A stretch of 64,000 bases of DNA from an uncultured Armatimonadia bacterium (GTDB lineage Bacteria; Armatimonadota; Zipacnadia; Zipacnadales; UBA11051). The stretch covers positions 6,155 through 70,154 of the forward strand of contig CAYMIN010000009.1 of assembly GCA_964390495.1 (NCBI GenBank), written 5' to 3'. Numbering within the stretch: the stretch's first letter is position 1; every line of letters begins with the position of its first letter. This document shows positions 32,289 through 46,356 of the stretch, in pieces. Both the position numbers and the translations under genes were made by a program. Below the pieces are notes generated by a model. It saw only the letters and a program-made list of their open reading frames with translations, ran no database searches and was not told where the DNA came from.

Positions 32289-33230
32289 ATGAGTTGGGCA
32301 GGTTGGATTGTCTTAGCGATTCTGGCACTTGTGGTCGTGGGCAAGGCGGTCTATATCGTCCGCCAGCACCAGCGAGGTGTGGTGGTGACCTTCGGCAAAT
32401 ACTCGAGGACGGTGCAGCCGGGGCTGGTGTTCGTCTTCCCCTTCGTCCAGGGCATTACCCTGGTGGACATGCGCGAGACGGTCCTTGATGTGATGCCGCA
32501 GGAGGTCATCACCGAGGATAACGCTCTGGTGACCGTGGATGCGATCGTGTACTACGAGATCACCGATCCCTTCCGCAACCTCTACAATGTCACCGACTTC
32601 CGCATGGCGGCGGTCAAGCTGGCCCAGACCAACCTACGTAACGTAGTCGGCGATATGGAGCTTGACGAGGTGCTGACCTCCCGCGAGACAGTCAATGCCC
32701 AGTTGCGGCAAATCCTCGACGACGCTACCGATAAGTGGGGCGTGCGCGTCACCCGCGTCGAGTTGCAGACCATCGAGCCGCCCGCCGACATCATTCAGGC
32801 CATGAGCCAGCAGATGAAGGCTGAGCGCCTCAAGCGTGCCGCGATCCTCGAGGCCGAGGGCCTGAGGCAGGCCGCGATTCTCAAAGCCGAGGGTGAGCGC
32901 CAGGCCCGCATCAACATCGCCGAGGGTGAGGCGGAAGCGATCAAGAAGGTGGCAGACGCCGAGAAGTACCGCGAGATCGCGGTGGCCCAAGGCGAAGCCC
33001 AAGCTATCACCACCGTCTTCGACGCCATTCACGCCGGCGATCCCACACCCGACCTGTTAGCGATTAAGTATCTCGAGGCGCTCGCCGATATCGCCGACGG
33101 TGAAGCCACCAAGATCTTCTTGCCGCTGGAAGCGATGGGCGTCCTGGGAAGCATGGCCGCTATCGGTGAGGCCTTCAAAGACGTTCAGCCGCCGGCAGCC
33201 AAAGGTCAAGTGGCTCCATCGGACGGGTAG
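32289..33230 (+). CDS. SPFH/band-7 (stomatin/prohibitin-like) protein
   Basis: N-terminal TM and band-7 core (YIVRQHQRGVVVTFGKY..., VDAIVYYEI.DP). C-terminal coiled-coil with EA-rich repeats. Confidence 0.85.
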   Translation: MSWAGWIVLAILALVVVGKAVYIVRQHQRGVVVTFGKYSRTVQPGLVFVFPFVQGITLVDMRETVLDVMPQEVITEDNALVTVDAIVYYEITDPFRNLYNVTDFRMAAVKLAQTNLRNVVGDMELDEVLTSRETVNAQLRQILDDATDKWGVRVTRVELQTIEPPADIIQAMSQQMKAERLKRAAILEAEGLRQAAILKAEGERQARINIAEGEAEAIKKVADAEKYREIAVAQGEAQAITTVFDAIHAGDPTPDLLAIKYLEALADIADGEATKIFLPLEAMGVLGSMAAIGEAFKDVQPPAAKGQVAPSDG

Positions 33231-33243
33231 TAGCTAGCTCTGG

Positions 33244-34218
33244 ATGGGAGCCGACGACGCAATGAAGCGGATCGTCAGCGTCAGCTTGGGGTCGAAAAGC
33301 CGAGACGCCAGCGCCACCGTTGAGATATTCGGCCAGCAGTTCCATCTGGAACGGGTCGGCACTGACGGCGACATCGCGGCCGCTCGGCGGATCATCTCCG
33401 AGCTCGATGGTCAGGTTGAGGCGATCGGGCTCGGTGGTATAGACCTCTATCTGGTCTGTGGGCGCCGTCGCTGGACGATCCGCGATGCGGCCAAGCTGGC
33501 GCGCGCCGCCAAGACCACTCCGGTCGTGGATGGCAGCGGCCTCAAGGACACTCTCGAACGCCGCGCCATCCGCGTGCTGCACGAAGAGGGACTCCTGGTC
33601 CCGCCTTCGTCTGCCCGTGATCCCGAGGCCGGCCCCCACTCCACCAAGGTCCTCATCGTTTCCGCGGTGGACCGCTTCGGCATGGCCGAAACCTTCGCCG
33701 AACTCGGCTACGACTGCCGCTTCGGGGATCTCATTTTCGCCCTGGGGCTGCCGCTCGTCCTAGCCTCGCTGACCTGGATCAAGCTCGCGGCCATAACCCT
33801 CCTGCCCCTTCTGACGCGCCTCCCCTTCACTGTCCTCTACCCCACTGGCAGCAAACAGGAGAGCCAGACCGGAAGAGCGCCTAAACACTTCGCGTGGGCC
33901 GACATCATCGCGGGGGACTTCCACTATATCAGGCGCAACTTACCTGCTGAGGGCGACTTACTGCGGGGCAAGACCATCATCACCAATACCACCACCGAGG
34001 CCGACATGCAGTTGCTGCGCGGCCTGGGCCTGCACCGGCTCATTACGACCACACCGCGCCTGGAGGGCCGCTCCTTCGGCACCAACATGATGGAGGCGGC
34101 GCTGCTGGCGCTGTCCGACAAGCCGTTTGCCGAGATCGGCCGCGACGATTACCTCGAAATGCTCGATAGAATGGAGTACGGCCCCTCGGTGGAACTACTC
34201 AACGACCCCAACAGGTGA
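33244..34218 (+). CDS. conserved hypothetical protein (unassigned family)
   Basis: ORF with good codon usage, 13 bp after the SPFH gene. No motif I can assign confidently. Start could be the internal Met (MKRIV) at 33262. Confidence 0.5.
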   Translation: MGADDAMKRIVSVSLGSKSRDASATVEIFGQQFHLERVGTDGDIAAARRIISELDGQVEAIGLGGIDLYLVCGRRRWTIRDAAKLARAAKTTPVVDGSGLKDTLERRAIRVLHEEGLLVPPSSARDPEAGPHSTKVLIVSAVDRFGMAETFAELGYDCRFGDLIFALGLPLVLASLTWIKLAAITLLPLLTRLPFTVLYPTGSKQESQTGRAPKHFAWADIIAGDFHYIRRNLPAEGDLLRGKTIITNTTTEADMQLLRGLGLHRLITTTPRLEGRSFGTNMMEAALLALSDKPFAEIGRDDYLEMLDRMEYGPSVELLNDPNR

Positions 34219-34453
34219 AGCTGGCGTCTTGGGCTGTCCAGTCTCTGTATATGACTCTTCGGCGTGCGGTGCTTCATGGAAGCCAGGCCATGAAACTGGC
34301 TCTGATGCACAACAATCTCCAGGACGACGGGCATCCCTGCCTGTCGCGAAACGGGGACAGGCGAGGATGCCTGTCCTCCAGGATGGGGTTGTGGGGGCGA
34401 GGCGTCACCGGCTGCCTTGCCTGTCCACTCCTCTAACGCCCCAAGCTGAGCAA

Positions 34454-35890
34454 TCACAGCTCCCGTCGGTGGCGCAGGTACTTCTCCTCCATATTCAGTT
34501 CTTCCAGCAGCTTGACGTAATCGGCGTGAAGCTCTCTGGCGATTTCCGGATGCTCGCCGATGACGTTTTGCTGCTGGCCGGGGTCCTCAGCTAGGTCATA
34601 GAGCTCCGGCGGCGGGATCCTGTCCCCTACTACCACGGCGTCGCGGCTCTCATCGTCCACGATGCTGGTGACATGCGATACCGGCGGCGCGTCGGGGCTG
34701 CCGAAGTGTACCAGGCACCAGTTGCCTTTGGTCACTGTTACCGGCCGTCCGCCGTTGGGATCGTGGGCCAGCGAGGCGGTCGTGACAGCGAAATCGCGAT
34801 TGCTTTGGCGCTCGCCGTTGATGATCGGCAGCAGACTGGCTCCGTGCATGGTCCCGGGGTCGGGTGCGCCGCTGAATTGCAAAATCGTCGGCATCAGGTC
34901 AGGCGGCTGGGCATAAGCTGAGACGCGCTTGCCCGTAGTCTGTTCGGGCATCCGGATCAGCAGCGGAATGTGCGCCACCTCCTCATAAAGCTGGACGATG
35001 GCGTGACCCTGCTGTTGAATCAGGCTCTTGCCGGTCAGCCCGTGCTCGCCCAGATAAAAGCCGTGGTCCGTGGTGAAGATGACCATGGTCTCGTCCAGCA
35101 CGCCGAGTTGGTCCAGGCGCTGCAGCAGGTAGCCCACCCAGGTGTCCACCAGGCTGACCTCGCCCGCATACAAGGCCCGCATGTGCTGCAACTCCGCCTC
35201 GGTGTAAACGTCGGCCGGACCGTAATTCGGGTAGTAGCAGATCTCGCCCCGATAGTTGGGATCAGCGTACAGGTCGGCGTACCACTTCGGCGGGTCGAAC
35301 GGCTCATGGGGGTCGAAGGTGTCCACGTACATGAAAAAAGGCTGCTGGTAGTTGTCTTCCAGCCAGCGAGCGGCTGTCATCATAGTGCGGGCCGGGAAGT
35401 AATCCTGCTCCTCCCGCCGCCACGAGGTATTGCGGATATACTGCCTGACGCTGTTGACGCCGCCATAGCGGATCTTGGCTTCGGAGCTGGGCAGCGGCGG
35501 ATCTGCCGGCGCTGACTTCCAGTTATCGTTCTCCTCCCCGCGGATCCAGTCATAGGCCGAGAAGCCGCGGAAGAAGTTCTGCTGGCCCCTGGCGATGTGG
35601 GGAGTATCCACGCAGAAGTACGTGGTGTAGCCGGCCCGGCCCAGCGCCTCCGCAACCACCGGCTTATCGGCAGGCAGCGGCGACCAGTCGAAATCAATGA
35701 AAGTGAACTGCCCTGTCATCACGTCACAGCGGTTGGGTACGGTCGGGAAAGACGCTGCGTAGGCGTTGTCGAAAATGGAGGCTTCGGCGGCCAGCCGGTC
35801 CAGGTTCGGCGTCCGTATCCAGTCATTGCCGTAGCAGCCCAGATGGTCGCGACGCATCGTGTCCGAGATGATGACTACCACATTCTTCAT
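34454..35890 (-). CDS. cytoplasmic sulfatase-like / alkaline-phosphatase-superfamily enzyme with Thr in the nucleophile position
   Basis: VVIISDTMRRDHLGCYGN metal-binding start. FPTVPNRCDVMTGQ replaces the sulfatase C/S-x-P-x-R, putting Thr at the nucleophile position as in EptA/LtaS-type transferases. No signal peptide. Confidence 0.7.
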   Translation of the reverse strand: MKNVVVIISDTMRRDHLGCYGNDWIRTPNLDRLAAEASIFDNAYAASFPTVPNRCDVMTGQFTFIDFDWSPLPADKPVVAEALGRAGYTTYFCVDTPHIARGQQNFFRGFSAYDWIRGEENDNWKSAPADPPLPSSEAKIRYGGVNSVRQYIRNTSWRREEQDYFPARTMMTAARWLEDNYQQPFFMYVDTFDPHEPFDPPKWYADLYADPNYRGEICYYPNYGPADVYTEAELQHMRALYAGEVSLVDTWVGYLLQRLDQLGVLDETMVIFTTDHGFYLGEHGLTGKSLIQQQGHAIVQLYEEVAHIPLLIRMPEQTTGKRVSAYAQPPDLMPTILQFSGAPDPGTMHGASLLPIINGERQSNRDFAVTTASLAHDPNGGRPVTVTKGNWCLVHFGSPDAPPVSHVTSIVDDESRDAVVVGDRIPPPELYDLAEDPGQQQNVIGEHPEIARELHADYVKLLEELNMEEKYLRHRREL

Positions 35891-35934
35891 AATTGCAGCT
35901 CCTCTTGATGCTCATCACAGTGCCGCATTCCATT

Positions 35935-37944
35935 CTAGAACACGGCATAGTAACGCCTTGAAACGGCACCCTCGATGAACAGGCTGAGCACTGACCAGCC
36001 GATGCCGCCAATGAGGTAGTGGGCGACCACATAGCCGATGAACAGCGGTATCAGCCGGCGGAATAGCCGAATGCCTCCGATCTTCAGGATCGCCCCCTTG
36101 ACGATCCACACACACAAAAAAGCGAACCACAGCGGTGTCGAAGGCCCGTAGGCCAGGGCCACTACGAAGCCAAGCGGATGCAGCGGGAAGCGCAGCCATA
36201 TCATCCTGGCCATCGCTAGTCCTAACGTAATCAAGGCGCCGCTGGCGATTGCGCCGGTGTGCTGCCAGTCGGGACCGGTCGGCGATTCGATCCGCCCCAC
36301 CATCCCCGTGTACGCCCCTACGGTGTCCGCCGTCCGCCAGTCCTGATTATTCGGGTGACTCTCCAGGACATTGAGCCCGTTCGCGTAGAAAGTGGTGAAA
36401 TGGCCCCAGAAGGCCAGTGTCAGGCCGGCTAGGAACGCCACCACCAACAAGGCCGAGAGCGCCCGCCGGTTGAGGCCGCCGGCCTTGCCGATCTGGAAAG
36501 CATCGGTCTGATTCGAGGTCATTATCTGCGTCGGGTGGAAGCGCGACAGAAACGCCAGCATCTCGAATACAACCATAGTGCGTTTCCCGCCCGCTGCCAG
36601 CACCCCTCGCGAGCCGATCGCGTAGAGAATCGTGTATTGCGGTAGCCGGTAGGGATACACGAAGTCATGTGCCACACCGACCTCGGCCCGTACGCGACCG
36701 TAGGTAAGGCCATAAGCCAGCACGATAAGGAAAAACGGCAGCGCGATTTTCAAGCTCATTCCCGAAAGCGTCATCCAGCCCACAACCATAGCGCCGCCGG
36801 CGGCCATGCCGATTATCGCCCAGCGGTAAGGCAGCGGCTCACGGCTGTCATCTATCCCCGGCGCTCGCCCGAAACCCTTGGCGAATACCTCCCGCAGATG
36901 CCCCTTGGCCACCCACAGCACCAGCACCGCCATCATCAGGTAGCCGCCGGCGCTCTGCTCCTGCATGTACGGCCAGCCGGGCGGCTCGTACCCGACTATG
37001 GCCCCGCCGACTGCCGCCAACTTGGCCAGGGCCGTGCAGGCGAAGATGCTGAAACACAGCTCCTGGGAGACCAGATAGCCGAAGCCGAAATACTGCGGAG
37101 TGCTGGACACCACCAGCGGATTCACCGCCGACCAGGGCCGCTCGGTGAAGAATTCGTTGAGGCTCCTGCTCTGCTCGATGGTCGGCACCGCCGGGTTAAC
37201 CGCGTGGGCGATGTTGAGGCCATTGTAGATGACTGCCATCAGTACCCCGACCCACGTCATCGGGTTAGTGAGAAAGTTGGCGAAAGCGCCTCGGGCGCTG
37301 GTGCCCTGCACCATCTCCATCGGCAGTTGCACCAGCGGGTACGGCAAATGCTCGCCGTCCGACCACTGCTTCGACATGATGCTCATCAGCGACATCGTGC
37401 ATACAAATAGCCCCAGGAAAAACAGCGTCCACAGCGCCAGGGGCTTGCCCCACACCGCCCAGGGCAGCCCGGTCTCGCTCAGTCCCTCATACATCTCGGT
37501 GATCCGCTGCAGCGACTGCGGCGCGTACCACGAAGGGATCAGGTGAGTGTATTCGGCCAAGTGGTTCTCCGGGGTCGCGTAGTACTGCATCACTGTCAAG
37601 CGGGGCAAGAACGAGCGGATACCGTAGGTGCCACAGAACGGTATCGCGATGATCATCAGGATATAGACCACCAGCAGCTCGCGCCGGGAAATGTTGAACC
37701 GCCCCAGCAGGCGTTGTCCCAGGGGATAAAGCGCCACCATCAGCGCCAGCACGGTGACGGCCGGTATCGGTGGGATGCCGCTGGCAATGTAGCGGCCGGT
37801 GACCAGCTCGATACGGCTCACCATCAGGTTGAAGATGAATATGAAGACCAGCGCCAGCAGCACGGCTCGCAGGGTGATGCCGCCAAGCTCAGGCTGCGCG
37901 GCGGCTTGCTCTTCGGGACTTGCGCTAGTTTCCTGGGTAGCCAT
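35935..37944 (-). CDS. 669-aa polytopic integral membrane protein of unknown function
   Basis: >14 predicted hydrophobic helices along the length. No recognisable catalytic motif. 25-bp gap to the upstream GHMP kinase gene and 44-bp gap to the downstream sulfatase-like gene. Confidence 0.7.
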   Translation of the reverse strand: MATQETSASPEEQAAAQPELGGITLRAVLLALVFIFIFNLMVSRIELVTGRYIASGIPPIPAVTVLALMVALYPLGQRLLGRFNISRRELLVVYILMIIAIPFCGTYGIRSFLPRLTVMQYYATPENHLAEYTHLIPSWYAPQSLQRITEMYEGLSETGLPWAVWGKPLALWTLFFLGLFVCTMSLMSIMSKQWSDGEHLPYPLVQLPMEMVQGTSARGAFANFLTNPMTWVGVLMAVIYNGLNIAHAVNPAVPTIEQSRSLNEFFTERPWSAVNPLVVSSTPQYFGFGYLVSQELCFSIFACTALAKLAAVGGAIVGYEPPGWPYMQEQSAGGYLMMAVLVLWVAKGHLREVFAKGFGRAPGIDDSREPLPYRWAIIGMAAGGAMVVGWMTLSGMSLKIALPFFLIVLAYGLTYGRVRAEVGVAHDFVYPYRLPQYTILYAIGSRGVLAAGGKRTMVVFEMLAFLSRFHPTQIMTSNQTDAFQIGKAGGLNRRALSALLVVAFLAGLTLAFWGHFTTFYANGLNVLESHPNNQDWRTADTVGAYTGMVGRIESPTGPDWQHTGAIASGALITLGLAMARMIWLRFPLHPLGFVVALAYGPSTPLWFAFLCVWIVKGAILKIGGIRLFRRLIPLFIGYVVAHYLIGGIGWSVLSLFIEGAVSRRYYAVF

Positions 37945-37969
37945 ATCTACCTCGGGCGAAGACGCTCCC

Positions 37970-38989
37970 TTACCAGCACAGAATGCCGTGGATATCTATG
38001 CTGCAGTCGAAGATCCTGGCCTGCGCCTCGCGCAAGGCCTGGCGCACGGCAAATTCGCGGTTGGGTGCCGCGAAGAAGACCATCGTACCGCCACCACCGG
38101 CGCCGCACACGCGACCACCCGTCGCGCCGGCTGCCATCGCGGTCGCGAAAAGCTGCTCCAGACGTTCGTTAGTCACATCGGGGTGCAACTGCTTGTGAAG
38201 CTGCCAGACCTCCGTCAAGATCGGCCCGATGGTATCCACCTTGCGGTCCAGAAGCTCCCGCCGCAACCGCTCGGCAAACTCGCTCATGCCCTGCAGGGCG
38301 CCGACGACCTGCCCAGCCCCGGCCAGTACACCAGCGGCTACCGCATCGAGAATTGACTTGGCGGGCCGCGAGATGCCACTGTAGCATACCACCATGCTCT
38401 TCTCAAGCTGCGCCATGCTTCTGGCGTCCAGCGGGATCAGGTTGATCTCGATGCCGCGCCCGCTGGCGACAGGCCAGTGCTTCATGAACTTCATGCCCCC
38501 GCCAGTCACCGGGCTGTATTGGTCCTGCCAGCCGTAGGTGGTGTCCAGAGCCGCGGTCTCGCAGTCCCGGGCCATCTCCGCCATCTCGTACGCCGACAGC
38601 CCATGACCGGTCAGAGCATCAAGCGCGGCGATGATACAGGTCGCGATTGTCGAGGACGATCCCAGTCCGGCACCGCTGGGCATCTCGGAATAGGTGGTCA
38701 GCTCCATGCCGCAGGGAAGATCAAAGCGCCTGATCAGTTCCTGGGCCAGGCCCAGCTCGCCCTTGGCGTCCAATTCCTCTGGAGACGCCACCTCGACACG
38801 CAAATCGCCATGATCCGGTGCATTGAGGATGATCCGTTCGTCCTGGCGGGGCGCCAGATGGGCGTAGATGTACTTGTTGATGGTGGCGTTGATGATGCTG
38901 CCGCCGAACTGCCGGCAGGCGGGCACGTAATCGGTCATGCCCACCAGGTCCACCCGTAGCGGCGAACGCACTGTAATATCTTCGGCCAT
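37970..38989 (-). CDS. GHMP-family sugar kinase (HddA/fucokinase-like)
   Basis: PLRVDLVGMTDY...GGSIINATINKYIY N-terminus. PSGAGLGSSS ATP-binding motif. C-terminal GAGGGG. Confidence 0.8.
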   Translation of the reverse strand: MAEDITVRSPLRVDLVGMTDYVPACRQFGGSIINATINKYIYAHLAPRQDERIILNAPDHGDLRVEVASPEELDAKGELGLAQELIRRFDLPCGMELTTYSEMPSGAGLGSSSTIATCIIAALDALTGHGLSAYEMAEMARDCETAALDTTYGWQDQYSPVTGGGMKFMKHWPVASGRGIEINLIPLDARSMAQLEKSMVVCYSGISRPAKSILDAVAAGVLAGAGQVVGALQGMSEFAERLRRELLDRKVDTIGPILTEVWQLHKQLHPDVTNERLEQLFATAMAAGATGGRVCGAGGGGTMVFFAAPNREFAVRQALREAQARIFDCSIDIHGILCW

Positions 38990-39010
38990 CCTCAGACCTC
39001 AGCGAAATCG

Positions 39011-39829
39011 CTACTTCTTCGCATCATCAAGATAGCGGCGCAGCACCTCAGCGTTCTGCGGCAGGATCTCCTCCGGCGGGAGCCACCCGATCCACTCGCC
39101 TGACAGCGCGCCCTGGAAGTCAATCGTGCTCAGCAGTTGCACGGCCTCGTCGTGAGGGATGTCGCCCTCGCCAGTCAGGCACAGCTCGACCTTCCCGTTC
39201 TCGTCTATGATGCCGTCATGGATGTGGCAGTGCCGCGCGTGGCCCTTGACATGCTCAAAGGCCTCGGCCATGCTCATGCCGTGAGTCACCGGGTGCATGA
39301 TGTCCCAACACACCTGCACGTGCGGATGGTCGGCCATGTTGATGACCTCCATCAGGTCATTGGCCAGGCAGTAGGCGTCATGGCTTTCCATGCACAGATA
39401 GACTTCGGTGCCTGCAGCGGCCTCGGCAGCGGCCCGCAGTGCTTCGGCCACGTACTTCTTAGCATCGGCGAAGTCCATGCCCTCCGGGGTCCCGCCGCCG
39501 AACACGCGCAGGTGGTGGCAGCCCACATCATCGGCCAACTCAATGAAGCGCCTAGTGATGTCAACGCTCTCCTGCCGCTCTCTGGCCTCGGCCTTCGCGT
39601 AGCTGCGCGAGGTAGCGATGCAGCTCATAGTGATGCCGGTGTCCTCGAACGCCGCCTTGATCGCGGCCCGCTCCTTTTTGGTCGTCTCGAGCTCCACGCC
39701 GTGCTTCTGTTGGTCGGTCTCAGCCCGGGGCTCGACCGCATCGTAGCCGTAGCGAATCGCGGCAGTCAGGACTTCGTTGAGGTCCCAGTCGGGGCATACC
39801 CATGTCATAAAGCTCAGTTGCATGATCAC
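39011..39829 (-). CDS. xylose-isomerase-like TIM-barrel sugar-phosphate isomerase/epimerase
   Basis: AP-endonuclease-2/xylose-isomerase TIM-barrel pattern with conserved His/Glu/Asp metal ligands. Confidence 0.7.
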   Translation of the reverse strand: MIMQLSFMTWVCPDWDLNEVLTAAIRYGYDAVEPRAETDQQKHGVELETTKKERAAIKAAFEDTGITMSCIATSRSYAKAEARERQESVDITRRFIELADDVGCHHLRVFGGGTPEGMDFADAKKYVAEALRAAAEAAAGTEVYLCMESHDAYCLANDLMEVINMADHPHVQVCWDIMHPVTHGMSMAEAFEHVKGHARHCHIHDGIIDENGKVELCLTGEGDIPHDEAVQLLSTIDFQGALSGEWIGWLPPEEILPQNAEVLRRYLDDAKK

Positions 39830-40464
39830 TTCTCACCTTTCTCATGGCTCATTCTCTTGACCAGTACGCACCTACTGTCCGAGTAGTAATACCGCAGCAG
39901 CAGCTCTTCGCCGTGCCCCTCCGCCAGCCCGATGCGACTTGTCACCACCACGGGCCGCTCCGGCCGGCTCCGGTCCGCCGCAACGTACAGCGGGGACCCA
40001 TCGAGCCGCGAGCGGTTGTCATCGCGGTCTATGCCTAGCGCCTGGGTCAGTTTCCCTGGGCCGCTGGCTAAATCCTCCAGCCGCTGGCGATTGCGCCGCT
40101 TTTGCATCAGCTCAATGCCGAGCAGCGGCTCCAGGGCGCGGATCAAAACGGCCCCAGGGAAGTTTATGGCCCCGGCGACCGCATCGAGGCAGCAGCGGGT
40201 GTGGATCGCATATACATAAGCCGTCCCTGGCGCTTCCCACATCACACTGTTGCGCGGGGTCTTGCCACGGGCGGCGTGACAGCCATCATCACCACAAGCC
40301 AAGTACGCTTCCGTCTCCACGATCCGCCCGGCGCAGATACCCTCTTCAGTCTCCTTGACCAGTATCTGCCCCAGCAAGCTGGCGGCGACCAGTTCAGCGG
40401 GCCGCGCATAAAAAGATGCCGGCAGAATCCGCCGGCGGAGCTGCTGAATCTCAGAGTTCCGCAT
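39826..40464 (-). CDS. mpg: DNA-3-methyladenine glycosylase (Mpg/AAG family)
   Basis: ARPAELVAASLLGQILV...RIVETEAY...GPGKL.QALGI motifs. Confidence 0.8.
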   Translation of the reverse strand: MRNSEIQQLRRRILPASFYARPAELVAASLLGQILVKETEEGICAGRIVETEAYLACGDDGCHAARGKTPRNSVMWEAPGTAYVYAIHTRCCLDAVAGAINFPGAVLIRALEPLLGIELMQKRRNRQRLEDLASGPGKLTQALGIDRDDNRSRLDGSPLYVAADRSRPERPVVVTSRIGLAEGHGEELLLRYYYSDSRCVLVKRMSHEKGEK

Positions 40465-40528
40465 CTGATGCTGGTTCTTCGGCGATTAGGCGCTTCCCTG
40501 CCTGAGCCGAGGTCGCTAGAGGGCGACT

Positions 40529-41197
40529 TCAGTCATCAGCCTTGGTCCACAGTGCATCCTTGGCTGTGGCCTCGATCGCGCTCAGCCACTTGGAGTGACC
40601 GTCGCAGTAGCCGTAGTTACCGCCGCCGTTGTGACGCCTGGCCACATTACTCAAGGCCGGGTCGTCGGCGGGGTTGTCGTCGACATCACGCTGGCTAGGG
40701 CCGTAGATGCACATGCCTCCGGCGTCGTGGAAGCCCTGGTCGGGGTCGTCGCCGATAAGTATGGTGCCGGCCGGTATCGGGATCCCACCCAGCTTGCAGC
40801 CCGCGCTGCTGCTGATGCTCCCGCTCGCAGCCCGATAACCGAAATTCTGGTAATTCCACCCGTAGCCGATATGCTGGTTGGGATAACTGGGGCAAACTAT
40901 GATCTGGGTGTTCTTCACATATGGCATCAGGGCCTGGTACCAGTAAATGTTCGTCGGCGTCCCGGCCTCACCCCACGCGGAGGCATAGGGCAGCGTTTCA
41001 TCATAGTCCTGGGCGTACATCATGATGCCCAGCATCAACTGCTTGACGTTTGACAGGCAGCTCGATTGTCGGGCCTTCTCCCGCGCGCGGGCGAAGACCG
41101 GGAACAAAATGGCCGCCAGGATCGCGATAATCGCGATCACCACTAGCAGTTCAATCAGCGTGAAACCTCGCCGGCTCATATCATCACCCCTATCCAT
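40529..41197 (-). CDS. prepilin-type N-terminal cleavage/methylation domain protein with DUF1559 (H-X9-DG) domain
   Basis: [25 protein letters not shown] class-III signal. C-terminal [13 protein letters not shown]. Likely start at the internal Met ([12 protein letters not shown]). Confidence 0.8.
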
Positions 41198-41447
41198 AAT
41201 ACAGCGTTCTATATTTAGTTCGGCGCGGGCAGGCTAGATTCCTGCCGGAAAATGCTTCGCCTTTGAGAGAACTATACCCAAATCGTTGCTTCCCTACACC
41301 CCCGAAAACGCGCGGAACAGGCGACTATCCCAGTTCTTCCCAGGTGCTGCACTTCGAGCCCGAAAGCAGGTCTGGCGCTGCCAAGTGGTGAACTACTGTG
41401 TGTCGGCAAGCTCCTACCAATAGCCGGTTACTCACGGGAGGTCTTCC

Positions 41448-42236
41448 ATGATCAAGTTAGGATTGTCGGGGCGCATCATCGAGGAGAGCGGGCCGAGCTA
41501 TCGGATGCCCGTCAGCGACTTTATTGCCAAAGCTGCTGAGATTGGCTATCGCGGTGTCGAGTTGCGCTCCGGCCAGCTAGACCACGAGACTAGCGACGAA
41601 CAGGTCGCGGAAATAGCTCAGGCGCTCACCACCAACAATGTCGCCTGTGCCTTTGCCAATTGTCTGGTTGCGCAGACGCCCGAGAATACGCAGAATCTCC
41701 GCCGCATGGCCGAGGTGGCCCGCTCGCTGGCCGCACCCTATCTGCGCATGGGCGCCGGCGATATCGAATGGGTACAGCAGGCCTGCGACATCAGCGTTGA
41801 GTTCGAGGTAAGCATCATCGTCCAGATTCACACCAATACGCCACTGGAGACCGTGGAGGGGGCGCTGCGGGTCTGCGAGCAGGTTGACCGGCCCAACTTC
41901 GGCCTTACCTACGAGCCGGCCAACTTCGTGCTGGCAGGCCGTGACTACGGCCAGCAAGCCCTTGAGCAGCTCGGCGACAAGCTCTTCAACGTTTCGCTGC
42001 AGAACCTCAAGCCGGTTGATACCACCGAGGGCGAGGGCGTCATCGCGCATCAGCAGCGCGGCTTCGTGCGTTGCCGTCCCGACGATCCCGAGGGCGTCAA
42101 TTTCGACAAGGTCTTCGGAGCGCTGAAGGCGGTCGGCTATAACGGCTACGCCACGCTGATTGAGCCGATATCACCGGTGATGGACAACCTGGAGATGGCC
42201 GCAGCTTACTACGACAAACTCAACCCGCTGTGCTGA
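41448..42236 (+). CDS. xylose-isomerase-like TIM-barrel protein (second, divergent paralog)
   Basis: TIM-barrel sugar-phosphate isomerase/epimerase pattern. GGGAGG RBS. Confidence 0.65.
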   Translation: MIKLGLSGRIIEESGPSYRMPVSDFIAKAAEIGYRGVELRSGQLDHETSDEQVAEIAQALTTNNVACAFANCLVAQTPENTQNLRRMAEVARSLAAPYLRMGAGDIEWVQQACDISVEFEVSIIVQIHTNTPLETVEGALRVCEQVDRPNFGLTYEPANFVLAGRDYGQQALEQLGDKLFNVSLQNLKPVDTTEGEGVIAHQQRGFVRCRPDDPEGVNFDKVFGALKAVGYNGYATLIEPISPVMDNLEMAAAYYDKLNPLC

Positions 42237-42263
42237 GGTCCGACGATTCCAGGAGATAGTGAC

Positions 42264-42749
42264 ATGCGAGGCCGTCTGGCTGAGGACATACTGGCGCTGC
42301 TGGTGGCTGTCGTGGTCTGCCAACTGGCCGGCGCGGTCGGTGCCCTGTTCACCGCTCCCGCGATACCAGGCTGGTACAGCCAACTTGCCAAGCCGCCGTT
42401 TAATCCCCCATCGTGGGTATTTGCGCCCGTCTGGATGTTGCTGTATCTGCTGATGGGCGTTTCAGCGTTCTTGGTGTGGCGCAAGGTCCGCGCCGTGCCC
42501 GGTGCCAAACTCGCGCTGGCTGTGTTTAGCGTCCAACTGCTGCTCAACGCGGCCTGGTCGCCGGTGTTTTTCGGTCTGCAATCACTCCTGGGCGGGCTCT
42601 GTGTCATCATTCCCCTGTGGATCGCGATCGTGGCGACAATAGCGTTGTTCTGGCGCATTTCCGCGGCGGCGGGTGCATTGCTGGTGCCTTACCTCCTGTG
42701 GGTGAGCTTCGCCGCGGTACTGAACTACTCGATATACACGCTTAACTGA
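42264..42749 (+). CDS. tspO: TspO/MBR tryptophan-rich sensory protein
   Basis: Five TM helices. Trp-rich motifs PPSWVFAPVW and NAAWSPVFFG. Confidence 0.85.
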   Translation: MRGRLAEDILALLVAVVVCQLAGAVGALFTAPAIPGWYSQLAKPPFNPPSWVFAPVWMLLYLLMGVSAFLVWRKVRAVPGAKLALAVFSVQLLLNAAWSPVFFGLQSLLGGLCVIIPLWIAIVATIALFWRISAAAGALLVPYLLWVSFAAVLNYSIYTLN

Positions 42750-42925
42750 TAAGCGCAACGCCGGTAGGCACCTTCGTACTGGCGGAGGCGTTCAGCTTCG
42801 ACGGTTTATTTCCCCACGCAGGAGGAATCCCTGTCTTGGTATCGAAGCTAGCCTAAGCACGCGGCCAGTCACAGTGGCCCGTGCTCAGTACCCAAACGTG
42901 TCGCTTTATTCGTAGGAGGTCGCAA

Positions 42926-43954
42926 ATGGAATACCGACAGCTTGGTCGTACCGGTACGCGCGTCTCAAAGCTGTGTCTGGGCACGATGAACTTCGTCGGC
43001 AGCACGGACCTCGATGAGGCCAAGCGCATTGTTGATGAGGCAATTGACGGAGGTATCAATTTCATAGACACCGCCGACTGCTACGCCCGTGGCGGCTCCG
43101 AGGAGTATCTGGGCATGGCCCTGCAGGAGAACGGGCACCGCGACGATGTGGTGGTGGCAACCAAAGCCGTGGCGAACATGGGTGACGGACCCAACGACCA
43201 CGGAGCCAGCCGCTACCATCTCACCCGTGCCGTCGAGGCCAGCCTCAAGCGTCTGCAGACCGACCGCATTGACCTGTTCTACCTCCACATCACCGACATC
43301 TCCACTCCCATTGACGAGATCCTCGATACCCTCGATGTCCTGGTGCGGCAGGGCAAGATTCTCTACATCGGCACCTCGAAGTGGCCGGTGCCGCTGATCA
43401 TGGAGCTGCTGGCGCTGAGCGACAAGCACGGTCTGCCGCGCACCGTCGCCGAGCAGCCCCCCTACAACCTCACCGACCGGCGCATCGAGATGGAGCTGGT
43501 GTGGACCTGCCTGCGCCACGGCATCGGCATCGTGCCCTTCGGGCCGTTGGCAGGCGGCATTCTCAGCGGCGTATATCGCAAAGGTCAGCCGGCTCCCGCA
43601 GGCCATAAGTTCAAGGAAATCGGCCAGCGCGACGGTCACAACCGCTACACCGAAGCGACTATGGACCTAGTCGAGAAGCTGATGCCGCTGGCTGAGGCGC
43701 GGGGCGTGACGCTGGCCGAGTTCTCCACCGCCTGGCTGATGCAGCGGCCGGGGATCACCGCACCGATAGCCGGGCCGCGTACGGTCGAGCACCTGCGCTC
43801 TTCGCTCAAGGCGTGCGAGATCGAGCTGACGCAGGAGGAGTTGGATAAGGTGGATGAGGCCATCCCGCCGGGCACCAATCTGACCAACTACTGCACGCTG
43901 TATGAGCGGATGTGCCGCGCCGTCAACAAGCCCGAGCCGCTGGGGGCGTTCTAA
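42926..43954 (+). CDS. aldo/keto reductase (AKR11/YhdN-like), paralog 1 of 3
   Basis: MEYRQLGRTGTRVS..LCLG, INFIDTADCY, and a C-terminal NADP-binding region. AGGAGG RBS. Confidence 0.85.
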   Translation: MEYRQLGRTGTRVSKLCLGTMNFVGSTDLDEAKRIVDEAIDGGINFIDTADCYARGGSEEYLGMALQENGHRDDVVVATKAVANMGDGPNDHGASRYHLTRAVEASLKRLQTDRIDLFYLHITDISTPIDEILDTLDVLVRQGKILYIGTSKWPVPLIMELLALSDKHGLPRTVAEQPPYNLTDRRIEMELVWTCLRHGIGIVPFGPLAGGILSGVYRKGQPAPAGHKFKEIGQRDGHNRYTEATMDLVEKLMPLAEARGVTLAEFSTAWLMQRPGITAPIAGPRTVEHLRSSLKACEIELTQEELDKVDEAIPPGTNLTNYCTLYERMCRAVNKPEPLGAF

Positions 43955-43973
43955 GCCCGAAGTACCCACCAGC

Positions 43974-44077
43974 GCGTAGCTCGGCCTGCCCCGAGCCTGT
44001 CGAAGGGCAGGTGAGAATGCGTCAGCATTCTCAGCTTCCAGCCCGAGGCCGTTGGGGTGACCACAGTGCGCCGTTTT
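43974..44077. repeat. second long copy of the intergenic repeat element
   Basis: Aligns to 13660-13766. Hairpins cctgccc..gggcagg (perfect) and gagaatgc-gtca-gcattctc, with compensatory substitutions relative to copy 1. Confidence 0.7.
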
Positions 44078-44181
44078 GCTCGCGTTCGCAAAAGCCCACG
44101 GCATCACTGTCAGCATGTTAGCAGAATCTACCTAGCTTCAGTCGGAAACCTGACCGACGCGACAAGAATAAGGAGGCAGTC

Positions 44182-45207
44182 ATGGAGTACCGACAACTGG
44201 GCCGCACCGGAACCAGAGTCTCAGAGCTCTGTCTCGGCTTGATGATTGACAGTCTGACCGATGAACAGACCTTTATAGACATCGTCAATGAGGCGATTGA
44301 TCTGGGCATCAACTTCCTTGACACCGCCGACTGCTACGGCACCGGCGAATCGGAGCGGCGCTTGGGCAAGGCGCTGGCGCAAAACGGCAAGCGCGATGAC
44401 ATCGTGCTGGCGACCAAAGCCGTCGCGGGCATGGGCCCCGGGCCTAACGACCACGGCGCCAGCCGCTATCACCTCTCCCGCGCAGTCGAGGCCAGCCTCA
44501 AGCGCCTGCAGACCGACCGCATTGACCTGTTCTATCTCCACATCGTGGACATCACCACCCCGCTGGACGAGATCTTCGGCCAGCTCGACATTCTGGTCAA
44601 GCAGGGCAAGATCCTCTATGTCGGCACCTCCAAGTGGCCGGTACCGCTGATCATGGAGGGCCTGATGATGCACGAGAAATACGGCTATCCGCGTATCGTT
44701 GCTGAGGAGCCACCTTACAGCCTCTGCGACCGCGGTATCGAGAACGAACTGGTGTGGACCTGCCTGCGCCACGGCATCGGTCTGTGTACGTGGGGACCAC
44801 TGGCCAGCGGCATCCTCGGCGGCGCCTATCGCAAGGGCCAGCCCTTCCCGGAGGGGCATCGCAAGTCAACGGTGGACCCTTCCGAAGACAAGCGCTTGAC
44901 CGAGGGTGCTCTCGACCTGATCGAGAACCTGATCCCGCTGGCCGAGGCCAGAGGCATAACGCTGCCCGACTTGTGTCACGCCTGGCTGCTGCAGCGGCCC
45001 GGCATCACCGCCCCCATCATCGGCGCGCGCAAGGTCGAGTATCTCCAGGCCGCGGTCAAGGCCACCGAGATCGAGCTAACCCAGGAAGAACTCGACAAAA
45101 TTGATGAATTCGCGCCGCCGGGCAGCGCAGTCAGCAACTACTACGACGGCAATGTCTATGCCCGCATGCGCAATGCCATCAACACCGACAACCCGCTGGG
45201 CTACTGA
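44182..45207 (+). CDS. aldo/keto reductase, paralog 2 of 3
   Basis: ~70-75% identical to the flanking AKRs by eye. AAGGAGG RBS. Confidence 0.85.
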   Translation: MEYRQLGRTGTRVSELCLGLMIDSLTDEQTFIDIVNEAIDLGINFLDTADCYGTGESERRLGKALAQNGKRDDIVLATKAVAGMGPGPNDHGASRYHLSRAVEASLKRLQTDRIDLFYLHIVDITTPLDEIFGQLDILVKQGKILYVGTSKWPVPLIMEGLMMHEKYGYPRIVAEEPPYSLCDRGIENELVWTCLRHGIGLCTWGPLASGILGGAYRKGQPFPEGHRKSTVDPSEDKRLTEGALDLIENLIPLAEARGITLPDLCHAWLLQRPGITAPIIGARKVEYLQAAVKATEIELTQEELDKIDEFAPPGSAVSNYYDGNVYARMRNAINTDNPLGY

Positions 45208-45224
45208 GGCCGGCGCACAGCCAC

Positions 45225-45262
45225 TGTCGCGTAGGTCGGGCTTCCAGCCCGACAATGCCGTA
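45225..45262. repeat. short variant of the same repeat family (gcgtaggtcgggcTTCCAgcccgac...)
   Basis: Shares the 5' gcgtag.tcgg and 3' cttccagcccga / caatgccgtaatg blocks with the long copies, but lacks the central ~50 nt. 7-bp stem gtcgggc/gcccgac around the TTCCA loop. Confidence 0.55.
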
Positions 45263-45321
45263 ATGCCAACTCGCTGCACGGACAGACAACCATCAACTCT
45301 CAGCTAGCCAGGAGGAACACC

Positions 45322-46356
45322 ATGGAGTACCGACAGCTAGGCCGCACCGGAACCAGAGTTTCACAGCTTTGCCTCGGCACCATGAACTTCGGCAATGTCA
45401 CCGATGAGCCGACCGCCCACCAGATGATTGATGAAGCTCTCGACGCGGGGATCAACTTCATTGACACCGCCGATTGCTACCAACGGGGCGTCTCGGAGGA
45501 GTTTATCGGCAGGGCGCTGGCCGAGAACGGCAGGCGCGATGACATCGTGCTGGCAACTAAAGCCGTCGCGGGTATGGGCGAAGGGCCCAACGATCACGGC
45601 GCCAGCCGCTACCACCTGTCGCGCGCGGTTGAGGCCAGCCTCAAGCGCTTGCAAACCGAGCGCATTGACCTGTTCTACCTGCACGTCGTGGATATCACCA
45701 CGCCGATGGATGAGATCTTCGGCCAGCTCGACGTGCTGGTCAAGCAGGGGAAGATCCTCTACGTGGGGACCTCGAAATGGCCGGTGCCGCTGATTATGGA
45801 GGGGCTGATGATGCACGAAAAGTACGACTACCCGCGCATCGTCGCCGAACAGCCGCCATATCAACTATGCGACCGCGGCATCGAAATGGAGCTGGTCTGG
45901 ACCTGCCTGCGCCAAGGTATCGGCATCGTCCCGTGGGGACCGCTGGCCTACGGGTTGCTTACCGGAATGTACCGCAAGGGCCAGCCGATTCCCGAAGGCC
46001 ACCGCTGGTCAGGTGCCGACCCCGACGCCAACAAGCGCTTCACCCATGCGGCCTTGGACCTGGTGGAGAAGCTGATTCCCATCGCCGAGGCTAAGGGCAT
46101 TGACCTACCGGCAATGGCACATGCCTGGCTGCAACAGCGGCCCGGCATCACCTCCCCGATCGTCGGCCCGCGCACTATCGAGCATCTACGCGCCGCCCTG
46201 GCGACCACCGAGATCACCTTCACCCAGGACGAACTTGACGCGATTGATGAGGCCATCCCGCCGGGCACGTGGGTAAGCGACTTCTACTTCGGCAACACCT
46301 ACGCCCACCTGGTGCGCTCGATCAATGACCCGGAGGACCCGACCGGATACCATTGA
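45322..46356 (+). CDS. aldo/keto reductase, paralog 3 of 3
   Basis: Same family signature. AGGAGGAA RBS. Confidence 0.85.
   Translation: MEYRQLGRTGTRVSQLCLGTMNFGNVTDEPTAHQMIDEALDAGINFIDTADCYQRGVSEEFIGRALAENGRRDDIVLATKAVAGMGEGPNDHGASRYHLSRAVEASLKRLQTERIDLFYLHVVDITTPMDEIFGQLDVLVKQGKILYVGTSKWPVPLIMEGLMMHEKYDYPRIVAEQPPYQLCDRGIEMELVWTCLRQGIGIVPWGPLAYGLLTGMYRKGQPIPEGHRWSGADPDANKRFTHAALDLVEKLIPIAEAKGIDLPAMAHAWLQQRPGITSPIVGPRTIEHLRAALATTEITFTQDELDAIDEAIPPGTWVSDFYFGNTYAHLVRSINDPEDPTGYH

Follow-up and report, generated by a model that had tools for sequence, protein, structure and literature searches.

Enzymes of the alkaline phosphatase superfamily that rely on a threonine or a serine as their nucleophile serve phosphoryl transfer, and a serine at the nucleophile position traps the sulfo-enzyme in arylsulfatase A. 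In this article, we will focus on a block of four genes found in a stretch of 64,000 nucleotides from an uncultured Armatimonadia bacterium (contig CAYMIN010000009.1, positions 6,155 to 70,154), which as a whole is called the window below; one of these genes encodes a sulfatase-fold protein with a threonine at that position, and another a large membrane protein of the families DUF6785 and DUF6784. A threonine cannot be converted to formylglycine, and a T-x-N-x-E motif type has been noted for the LtaS/EptA/CptA-like proteins (SulfAtlas paper, PMC5066984). An Asp-His metal pair, as is found in the present protein, is also used by the phosphonate monoester hydrolases (PMHs) and by the Mn-dependent arylsulfatase EfAS (PMC12421950). 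We considered EfAS as a precedent for an enzyme of the Thr type and ruled it out, as it uses Cys61 (PMC12421950). A literature search on Thr-type sulfatases returned nothing specific.

An earlier note, made from the sequence of the window, had described the four genes as a system for the generation and transfer of sugar phosphates, and potentially as an undescribed module for envelope modification or transport. What it observed in the sequence is largely right, and its interpretation is partly supported. Transport agrees with the elevator-type OPT/Yellow-Stripe fold of the membrane protein, whereas envelope modification is not supported, the block holding no glycosyltransferase, nucleotidyltransferase or lipid-linked-sugar enzyme and its Thr enzyme being soluble. 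As for the module itself, the four genes form a lineage-specific, tightly packed run and not a conserved four-part machine: their synteny is not conserved beyond relatives of about 88% identity, and orthologs of each gene are found elsewhere among unrelated neighbours. For the four-gene set, this is the outcome that the note itself had named as refuting its reading.

The genes are co-directional, with intergenic gaps of 21, 25 and 44 bp that the coordinates of the open reading frames (ORFs) bear out, and each of the four starts has a Shine-Dalgarno-like sequence 5-10 nt upstream. In the order of transcription, followed by the two motifs of the last gene, they are:

39011-39829, minus strand: TIM-barrel gene, 272 amino acids (aa); translation probably begins with the ATG at 39823, ahead of which lies the Shine-Dalgarno AGGTGA
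37970-38989, minus strand: GHMP kinase gene, 339 aa (PF00288/PF08544)
35935-37944, minus strand: membrane protein gene, 669 aa (DUF6785 and DUF6784)
34454-35890, minus strand: sulfatase-fold gene, 478 aa (PF00884)
35729-35749, minus strand: FPTVPNR motif, read from the translation
35729-35743, minus strand: T50-V-P-N-R54, the (C/S)-x-P-x-R signature with Thr at the nucleophile position, from the translation and the alignment with 5g2v

The membrane protein

The membrane protein had been noted as a protein of no recognisable family, which turned out not to be the case. Over its full length it matches DUF6785 (PF20581; 371.3 bits for a cutoff of 25, E 8.6e-111), and it also matches DUF6784 (PF20580; 70.2 bits for a cutoff of 26.4, E 1.8e-19), so that both gathering thresholds are exceeded; the two domains are present in 49/49 aligned homologs. 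The many transmembrane segments attributed to it are confirmed by about 13-15 hydrophobic peaks and by about 20 helices in an AlphaFold2 model. This model, built on the 49 homologs, has a mean pLDDT of 90.9 and a pTM of 0.91, and a Foldseek search with it gave 7wst and 7wsr as the sole matches (probability 1.00, TM-scores 0.62-0.71). It shows the core and scaffold domains and the inverted repeats of the YS1-type fold, at 12-15% identity to YS1. At the level of sequence, the profile of the DUF6785 family found no match at E<=10 among all PDB sequences, none of the 49 family members matched Pfam OPT (PF03169) at E<=10, and the sequence or profile similarity that defines the OPT superfamily (PF03169 / TC 2.A.67) is thus not found. 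As the kinship with OPT is undetectable in sequence, we file the protein under DUF6785/DUF6784 and not as a demonstrated member of the OPT family; for the same reasons of low identity and lack of sequence matches to PDB chains and Pfam OPT, the substrate of YS1 cannot be transferred to it. By the model, the protein has the OPT/Yellow-Stripe fold and probably an OPT-like mechanism, and it can be described as a putative proton-coupled importer of the elevator type.

DUF6785 is a large family: when 1.84 billion cluster representatives were searched with its profile, 9,134 of them qualified as members at E<=1e-3, and the stricter threshold of E<=1e-30 kept 3,735. A search for DUF6785/DUF6784 found no paper naming either family in the literature library that was covered. 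In one protein of 2,120 aa (P0261), residues 1473-2117 at the C-terminal end make up a complete DUF6785/6784 region, so that this is either a transporter fused to a large N-terminal region or an artefact of gene calling.

The sulfatase-fold protein

The 478-aa protein matches the Pfam sulfatase domain (PF00884, E 1.6e-42), and the threonine that the earlier note had located in FPTVPNR is indeed at the nucleophile position. In an alignment with BT4656 (5g2v), in which the motif matches residue for residue, Thr50 falls on the nucleophile, and among the best 120 homologs (50-88% identical) a threonine is found at this position in 118/118 motif-readable sequences, the remaining two also showing FPTV at the position of the motif. 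The protein belongs to a large clade in which threonine replaces the formylglycine precursor. No hydrophobic N-terminal segment was detected in it, in keeping with the lack of a signal peptide that had been noted, and all of the best 120 homologs also start directly at the first beta-strand, without a signal peptide. Conservation reaches at least 97% in the 120 sequences for D10-T11, T50/P52/R54/T59/G60, D95-T96-P97-H98, D193-P194-H195, D275-H276-G277 and K288, and these residues, T50, P52 and R54 among them, are also invariant in an alignment of 50 sequences.

With the canonical sulfatase positions assigned from the 5g2v alignment alone, the second N-terminal Asp is replaced by Thr11 and the K-x-H motif by D95-T96-P97-H98, with loss of the Lys, while the Asp-His metal pair (D275-H276) and the later Lys (K288) are retained. 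The protein has the PF00884 fold of the S1 sulfatases and neither their Cys or Ser convertible to formylglycine, nor their Asp-Asp metal pair with the Lys-x-His motif. Its predicted structure (pLDDT 93.8) finds its top folds among the S1 sulfatases and the PMHs, with TM-scores of about 0.7 and about 20% identity, and not among LtaS/EptA.

The likeness to EptA and LtaS that had been proposed is thus only partly upheld. The comparison with phospho-group transferases using a Thr nucleophile is reasonable because the threonine is strictly conserved, and it is carried, as in these enzymes, by a domain of the alkaline phosphatase superfamily. However, the nearest folds are others, the multi-span membrane domain and extracytoplasmic catalysis are lacking, and the NCBIfam LtaS/CptA models score 19-22 bits for cutoffs of 404-970 (CptA 21.8 for 900; LtaS 19.3 for 970). 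Being soluble and without a signal peptide, the protein cannot act on the outer face of the membrane as LtaS and EptA do. The replacement of the formylglycine precursor by threonine, together with the loss of the second metal Asp and of the sulfate-binding Lys, favours a phospho-Thr route over a sulfatase. Judged from these residues, the protein is most likely a cytoplasmic phosphoesterase or phosphotransferase that would act through phospho-Thr50 on a phosphate mono- or diester.

The kinase and the TIM-barrel protein

The two upstream proteins had been assigned to an HddA-like GHMP kinase and a TIM-barrel isomerase, and both assignments are borne out at the level of the family. In the kinase, both GHMP domains score above their cutoffs (PF00288 57.9 bits, PF08544 32.8 bits). 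Its best NCBIfam match is HddA (NF049969), with 171.2 bits and an E of 3.9e-50; this score is far under the 600-bit equivalog cutoff, and the kinase is therefore classed as HddA-like. Its closest solved relatives are the heptose-7-phosphate kinases 4n3o (E 4e-43) and 4usk (E 1.4e-39), followed by fucokinase, and its sequence places it among the GHMP sugar kinases, in the HddA/fucokinase branch. Genes for the partners GmhA, GmhB and HddC are absent from the block and from four loci carrying orthologs of the kinase (L055-L058).

The 272-aa protein is a TIM barrel of the xylose-isomerase-like family (PF01261; 120.8 bits for a cutoff of 31.1, E 1e-34). It reaches none of the NCBIfam equivalog cutoffs and shows a weak resemblance, below cutoff, to L-ribulose-5-phosphate 3-epimerase, IolO and hydroxypyruvate isomerase. 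Its predicted class is that of the sugar or sugar-phosphate isomerases/epimerases.

Conservation of the run

We collected loci with relatives of the membrane protein from GTDB genomes (16) and metagenomes (27), and more through look-ups of exact proteins, which amounts to 37 non-redundant DUF6785 loci. The locus scan was run with the narrower alignment A3, reaching about 30% identity, the diverse A1/A2 being too variable, and genes in GC-rich loci were called with a filter on the GC content of the third codon position; greedy longest-ORF calling picks antisense shadow ORFs. The closest loci, with about 90% protein identity, come from metagenome-assembled genomes labelled Candidatus Zipacnadia (Armatimonadota). 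Ordered by the identity of the membrane protein, the relatives have the following arrangements:

About 88-92% (L001, L002, L025): all four genes; in L025, a lipoprotein gene additionally separates transporter from sulfatase
78% (L003/L026): kinase missing; the same lipoprotein gene ahead of the sulfatase
About 70% (L004/L030): run of MPG (methylpurine-DNA glycosylase), TIM barrel, kinase and transporter; L004 without sulfatase
About 70% (L005/L017/L018, L031): no sulfatase; L005/L017/L018 without kinase but with TIM barrel and transporter; L031 cut upstream
About 60% (L019/L020, L044): kinase and transporter, 9 bp apart in L019, preceded by genes for CBM9, DUF4432 and a heparinase II/III-like protein
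About 60% (L006/L027, L007/L028, L029): no partners
About 50% (L008, L009): no partners

The same set of genes is therefore not found across divergent genomes; at less than 60% identity the surroundings vary and have nothing to do with the run, enzymes of carbohydrate degradation being frequent among them. Upstream sequence is available for 11 ortholog lineages; the kinase and the TIM barrel each lie next to the transporter in 4/11 of them, and the sulfatase in 2/11. A weaker link does survive between kinase and transporter, the kinase lying directly upstream of the DUF6785 gene in these 4/11; this adjacency is seen in the window, L001/L002/L025, L004/L030, L019/L020 and L044, at 60-90% identity and in two different upstream contexts. 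A link between sulfatase and transporter is possible. One of the four homologs of the Thr-type sulfatase that we examined is divergently adjacent to a DUF6785 gene (L022), and in a locus of Poribacteria (L021) a sulfatase of the same type (SFPTIPTR, VDTPH) lies 6.6 kb from the DUF6785 gene. As for the lipoprotein gene (lipobox LTGCGG, three CarboxypepD_reg domains), it directly follows DUF6785 in L003 (5393-6463), L025 (2295-3299) and L004 (12062-13294); it is present in relatives of 70-92% identity, whereas neither the window nor L001 or L002 has it. An AP_endonuc_2 gene next to one kinase ortholog (L056) was considered as evidence of a conserved pair of TIM barrel and kinase; it was rejected, being 29% identical to the TIM barrel of the window and hence a paralog.

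The minus-strand run also extends past the four genes, to include two more:

39826-40464, minus strand: MPG gene (PF02245, E 3.4e-57; TIGR00567, 157 bits for a cutoff of 116)
40529-41197, minus strand: gene for a protein with prepilin-type N-terminal methylation, DUF1559 (SBP_bac_10) and H-X9-DG features (PF07596, PF07963, TIGR04294)

The DUF1559 gene heads the run, 64 bp upstream of the MPG gene, and is the sole copy in the window. The function of MPG is in DNA repair, without relation to sugars. Its stop codon lies 2 nt ahead of the likely ATG of the TIM-barrel gene (39823) or, alternatively, the two genes overlap by 4 nt if the latter begins at a GTG (39823-39829). The pair is retained in L001, L003, L004, L017 and L030, and so still at about 70% identity (L017); for a DNA-repair gene to be coupled in this conserved manner to one of the sugar-isomerase-like type is odd.

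Neighbours of the wider DUF6785 family

Across the family, the genes found next to DUF6785 include many of the carbohydrate-active type: heparinase II/III-like with CBM9 and DUF4432, GH4 with AraC, GH123, an FG-GAP/lambda-carrageenase-like propeller, DUF4838 with a GH67-N-like domain (in two loci), a PcRGLX-like lyase, CBM35/PKD, alpha-L-arabinofuranosidase and 3-keto-disaccharide hydrolase. In one case, an APH-family kinase gene overlaps a 36%-identical DUF6785 gene, and genes for a polysaccharide deacetylase, GFO_IDH and MR_MLE follow. This pattern is what a versatile transporter family, placed in many catabolic loci and not a component of a fixed machine, would look like. A literature search on Armatimonadota glycan transporters returned nothing specific.

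Several of these loci deserve a mention of their own. In a genome of 4.56 Mb (L022, 1364-16104), three DUF6785 paralogs, one of them apparently split into two ORFs or frameshifted, are found within 17 kb, interleaved with genes for an AraC regulator, GH4, a beta-helix protein, an MTTB-family protein and a Thr-type sulfatase; by this mix of genes, the locus resembles a polysaccharide-utilisation locus. In the lineage of 60% identity, CBM9 protein, DUF4432, GHMP kinase and DUF6785 genes share one strand (L044 2679-6998, L019 78-9995). We take DUF4432 to have a mutarotase-like fold, and if this is so, a mutarotase, an anomeric kinase and a transporter would fit the salvage of sugars. DUF3830 is the commonest uncharacterised neighbour, near DUF6785 in about four loci (L024 9571-10023, L048 6839-7957 and others in alignment A6). 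Genes of the DUF1559/H-X9-DG type are no further than one or two genes away from a DUF6785 gene in six or more distinct loci (the copy of the window being counted among them; L008 8725-9471, L022 3613-4623 and 16173-17153, L029 3-173, L039 4688-5716, L050 3156-4178, and also L037/L040), in genomes where they are very abundant anyway; their products might be anchored substrate-binding partners of DUF6785.

Possible roles of the block

Our favoured reading, which we hold tentatively and would not go so far as to call probable, is that the block is a loose cluster for the uptake and phosphorylation of a probably glycan-derived solute. The DUF6785 protein would carry out the proton-coupled import of a small organic solute, probably a glycan-derived sugar or a derivative of one, as suggested by the genomic company of the family. 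The HddA-like kinase would then add a phosphate to the sugar brought in, probably on C1 (the anomeric carbon) as its relatives do, and the TIM-barrel enzyme would isomerise or epimerise the phosphorylated sugar, two steps proposed from family membership. The Thr-type enzyme may remove or transfer a phosphate, at a place in the pathway that is doubtful, and the link of its gene to the other three is weak. Gene content, families, the threonine substitution with its conservation, the fold of the transporter and the lack of conserved synteny are what the analysis shows; the direction of transport, the substrate and every catalytic step are what we infer here. More broadly, and in our opinion unlikely, DUF6785/DUF6784 could be a large unrecognised bacterial branch of OPT/Yellow-Stripe transporters importing the products of glycan breakdown and perhaps fed by surface lipoproteins or prepilin-anchored DUF1559 binding proteins; in some Armatimonadota/Poribacteria, together with anomeric sugar kinases and a cytoplasmic Thr-nucleophile enzyme acting as a sugar-phosphate phosphotransferase or phosphodiesterase, it would constitute an undescribed route of sugar salvage.

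A number of points weigh against an uptake-and-phosphorylation cluster. Characterised members of the OPT family carry peptides and metal chelates and are not known to carry sugars. Translational coupling ties a DNA-repair gene into the run, so tight spacing is no sign of shared function. The full set of four genes is confined to relatives of about 88-92%, kinase and sulfatase being gained or lost among close relatives. Three kinase orthologs (63-68% identical) have no DUF6785 neighbour and lie instead by a beta-helix/NPCBM protein, by a paralogous TIM barrel with GT2, or by a GFO_IDH oxidoreductase. Likewise, 3/4 of the Thr-sulfatase homologs examined have no DUF6785 neighbour, one being found 23 bp after a GH127 gene and two in unrelated surroundings. 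Among 100 neighbour proteins from 26 loci of the family there is no dominant partner (the top counts are 3-4, for AAA_21, DegT, DUF3830 and N_methyl), and some are of the amidase or peptidase type (amidohydrolase, DMFA2_C, creatininase, M28). Finally, a scan for sigma-70-type promoters and intrinsic terminators in 33200-42300 gave 2 promoter-like sites (2.1 expected from shuffles) and 5 terminator-like ones (5.1 expected), and counts at the shuffled level are uninformative on operon boundaries.

It could accordingly be asked whether the four genes lie together by chance or under loose selection, co-transcribed in a compact genome, with each of them serving a pathway of its own and no substrate in common. 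We consider this rather unlikely, although it has much in its favour: the coupling of an unrelated DNA glycosylase gene to the TIM-barrel gene, the sulfatase and the kinase found beside the transporter in only 2/~11 and 4/11 ortholog lineages, a lipoprotein gene that, in relatives of about 90% identity, has been gained or lost from the space separating transporter and sulfatase, kinase and sulfatase orthologs usually located elsewhere, and heterogeneous neighbour families. It accounts less well for a kinase-transporter adjacency that persists down to 60% identity in two upstream contexts, for the overlap of a DUF6785 gene with a kinase of a different type (APH), and for the recurrence of Thr-type sulfatases by DUF6785 in the unrelated 4.56-Mb genome and at some distance from it in Poribacteria. 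Uptake of another kind, in which DUF6785 would import oligopeptides or metallophore complexes like OPT/YSL and the adjacent enzymes would be unrelated, seems to us very unlikely. The sole structural relative of the membrane protein is, it is true, an iron-phytosiderophore importer of the OPT family, the neighbours of its homologs include ceramidase-like proteins in addition to the amidohydrolases, M28 peptidase, DMFA2_C and creatininase, and at 3-6 kb from the block the window has genes for a NikR regulator and for a transporter of the CitMHS/ArsB type, which are kept in L017. On the other side, the distance from YS1 prevents the transfer of its substrate, and carbohydrate-active neighbours and sugar-type kinases are commoner than peptidases.

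The least probable of the explanations, and very unlikely as well, is biosynthesis directed to the envelope, in which isomerase, HddA-like kinase and phosphatase-like enzyme would mimic GmhA/HddA/GmhB and the membrane protein would export or attach the product. A trio of isomerase, kinase and phosphoesterase-like enzyme does parallel the GDP-heptose route, and the top matches of the kinase are heptose-7-phosphate kinases. A threonine with Asp/Asp/His metal ligands recalls LtaS and EptA, some kinase orthologs are near a GT2 glycosyltransferase, LptF/G or a PMT_2-type glycosyltransferase, and the Poribacteria DUF6785 gene is divergent from genes for NTP_transf_3 and a HAD hydrolase. Against this stand the HddA score of the kinase, the lack in the block of a SIS-type isomerase, a HAD phosphatase, a nucleotidyltransferase and a glycosyltransferase, and a sulfatase-like protein that has neither anchor nor signal peptide and scores far below the LtaS/CptA cutoffs. 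Moreover, the fold of the membrane protein is of the importer type, not GT-C or EptA, synteny is not conserved, and the neighbours of the homologs are mostly degradative enzymes.

Genes around the run

Plus-strand genes are found on either side of the minus-strand run, and a PADLOC scan of six proteins gave no match to an anti-phage defence system. On one side, the gene at 33244-34218 encodes a conserved protein of 324 aa without Pfam or NCBIfam match, which adjoins a pair of SPFH/Band-7 and NfeD genes in every close relative (L001-L005, L017, L031). On the other side lie a second TIM-barrel gene (41448-42236), which is syntenic with the block in L001, L003, L004 and L017, then a TspO gene (42264-42749) and, downstream of these on the plus strand, three tandem aldo-keto-reductase-like paralogs (42881-46356) of 357, 341 and 344 aa, each beginning MEYRQLGRTGTRVS.

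Significance

As a module, the finding is an ordinary one, that of a transporter gene beside a few metabolic enzymes in a set that is not conserved. Its two less ordinary components are of wider reach. The fold of Yellow Stripe 1, unique otherwise, is common to about 9,000 clusters (at 50% identity) of a family without assigned function, and a tractable bacterial member of DUF6785 could help explain the mechanism of the OPT-type elevator and the range of its cargo. In addition, threonine has taken the place of formylglycine, with the rest of the signature kept, in a well-populated clade of cytoplasmic proteins with the sulfatase fold. Going by its conserved residues, the clade seems to have switched naturally from the transfer of sulfuryl groups to that of phosphoryl groups within the alkaline phosphatase superfamily, and counts of sulfatases based on Pfam would consequently be too high in Armatimonadota and related phyla.

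Comparison with known systems

With the S1 sulfatases and S1_0 PMHs (BT4656 5g2v, ArPMH 4uph, EfAS 9koq), the 478-aa protein has in common the fold, two parts of the signature (P-x-R and TG), the G-K motif lysine (K288) and D275-H276, which matches the PMH/EfAS pair; it differs from them by its Thr nucleophile, by Thr11, by D-T-P-H in the place of K-x-H, and by a predicted cytoplasmic location without signal peptide. With LtaS/EptA/CptA it shares the Thr nucleophile, the acid/Asp/His set of single-metal ligands and the fold of the alkaline phosphatase superfamily, whereas it has no N-terminal multi-helix anchor, carries T-x-P-x-R and not T-x-N-x-E, and has sulfatases and PMHs as its nearest structures.

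The 339-aa kinase resembles the heptose 7-phosphate kinases HddA/WcbL in its intact GHMP N and C domains and in its PSGAGLGSSS phosphate-binding motif. It departs from them by its HddA score and by the lack of GmhA/GmhB/HddC, and its orthologs lie beside degradative or oxidoreductase genes. As for the membrane protein, its relation to the OPT/Yellow Stripe-like transporters (TC 2.A.67; barley HvYS1, 7wsr/7wst) appears in the modelled fold and leaves no trace in matches to PDB chains or to the Pfam OPT profile; in contrast to HvYS1, the DUF6785 protein is bacterial and belongs to a family found in carbohydrate-degradation loci.

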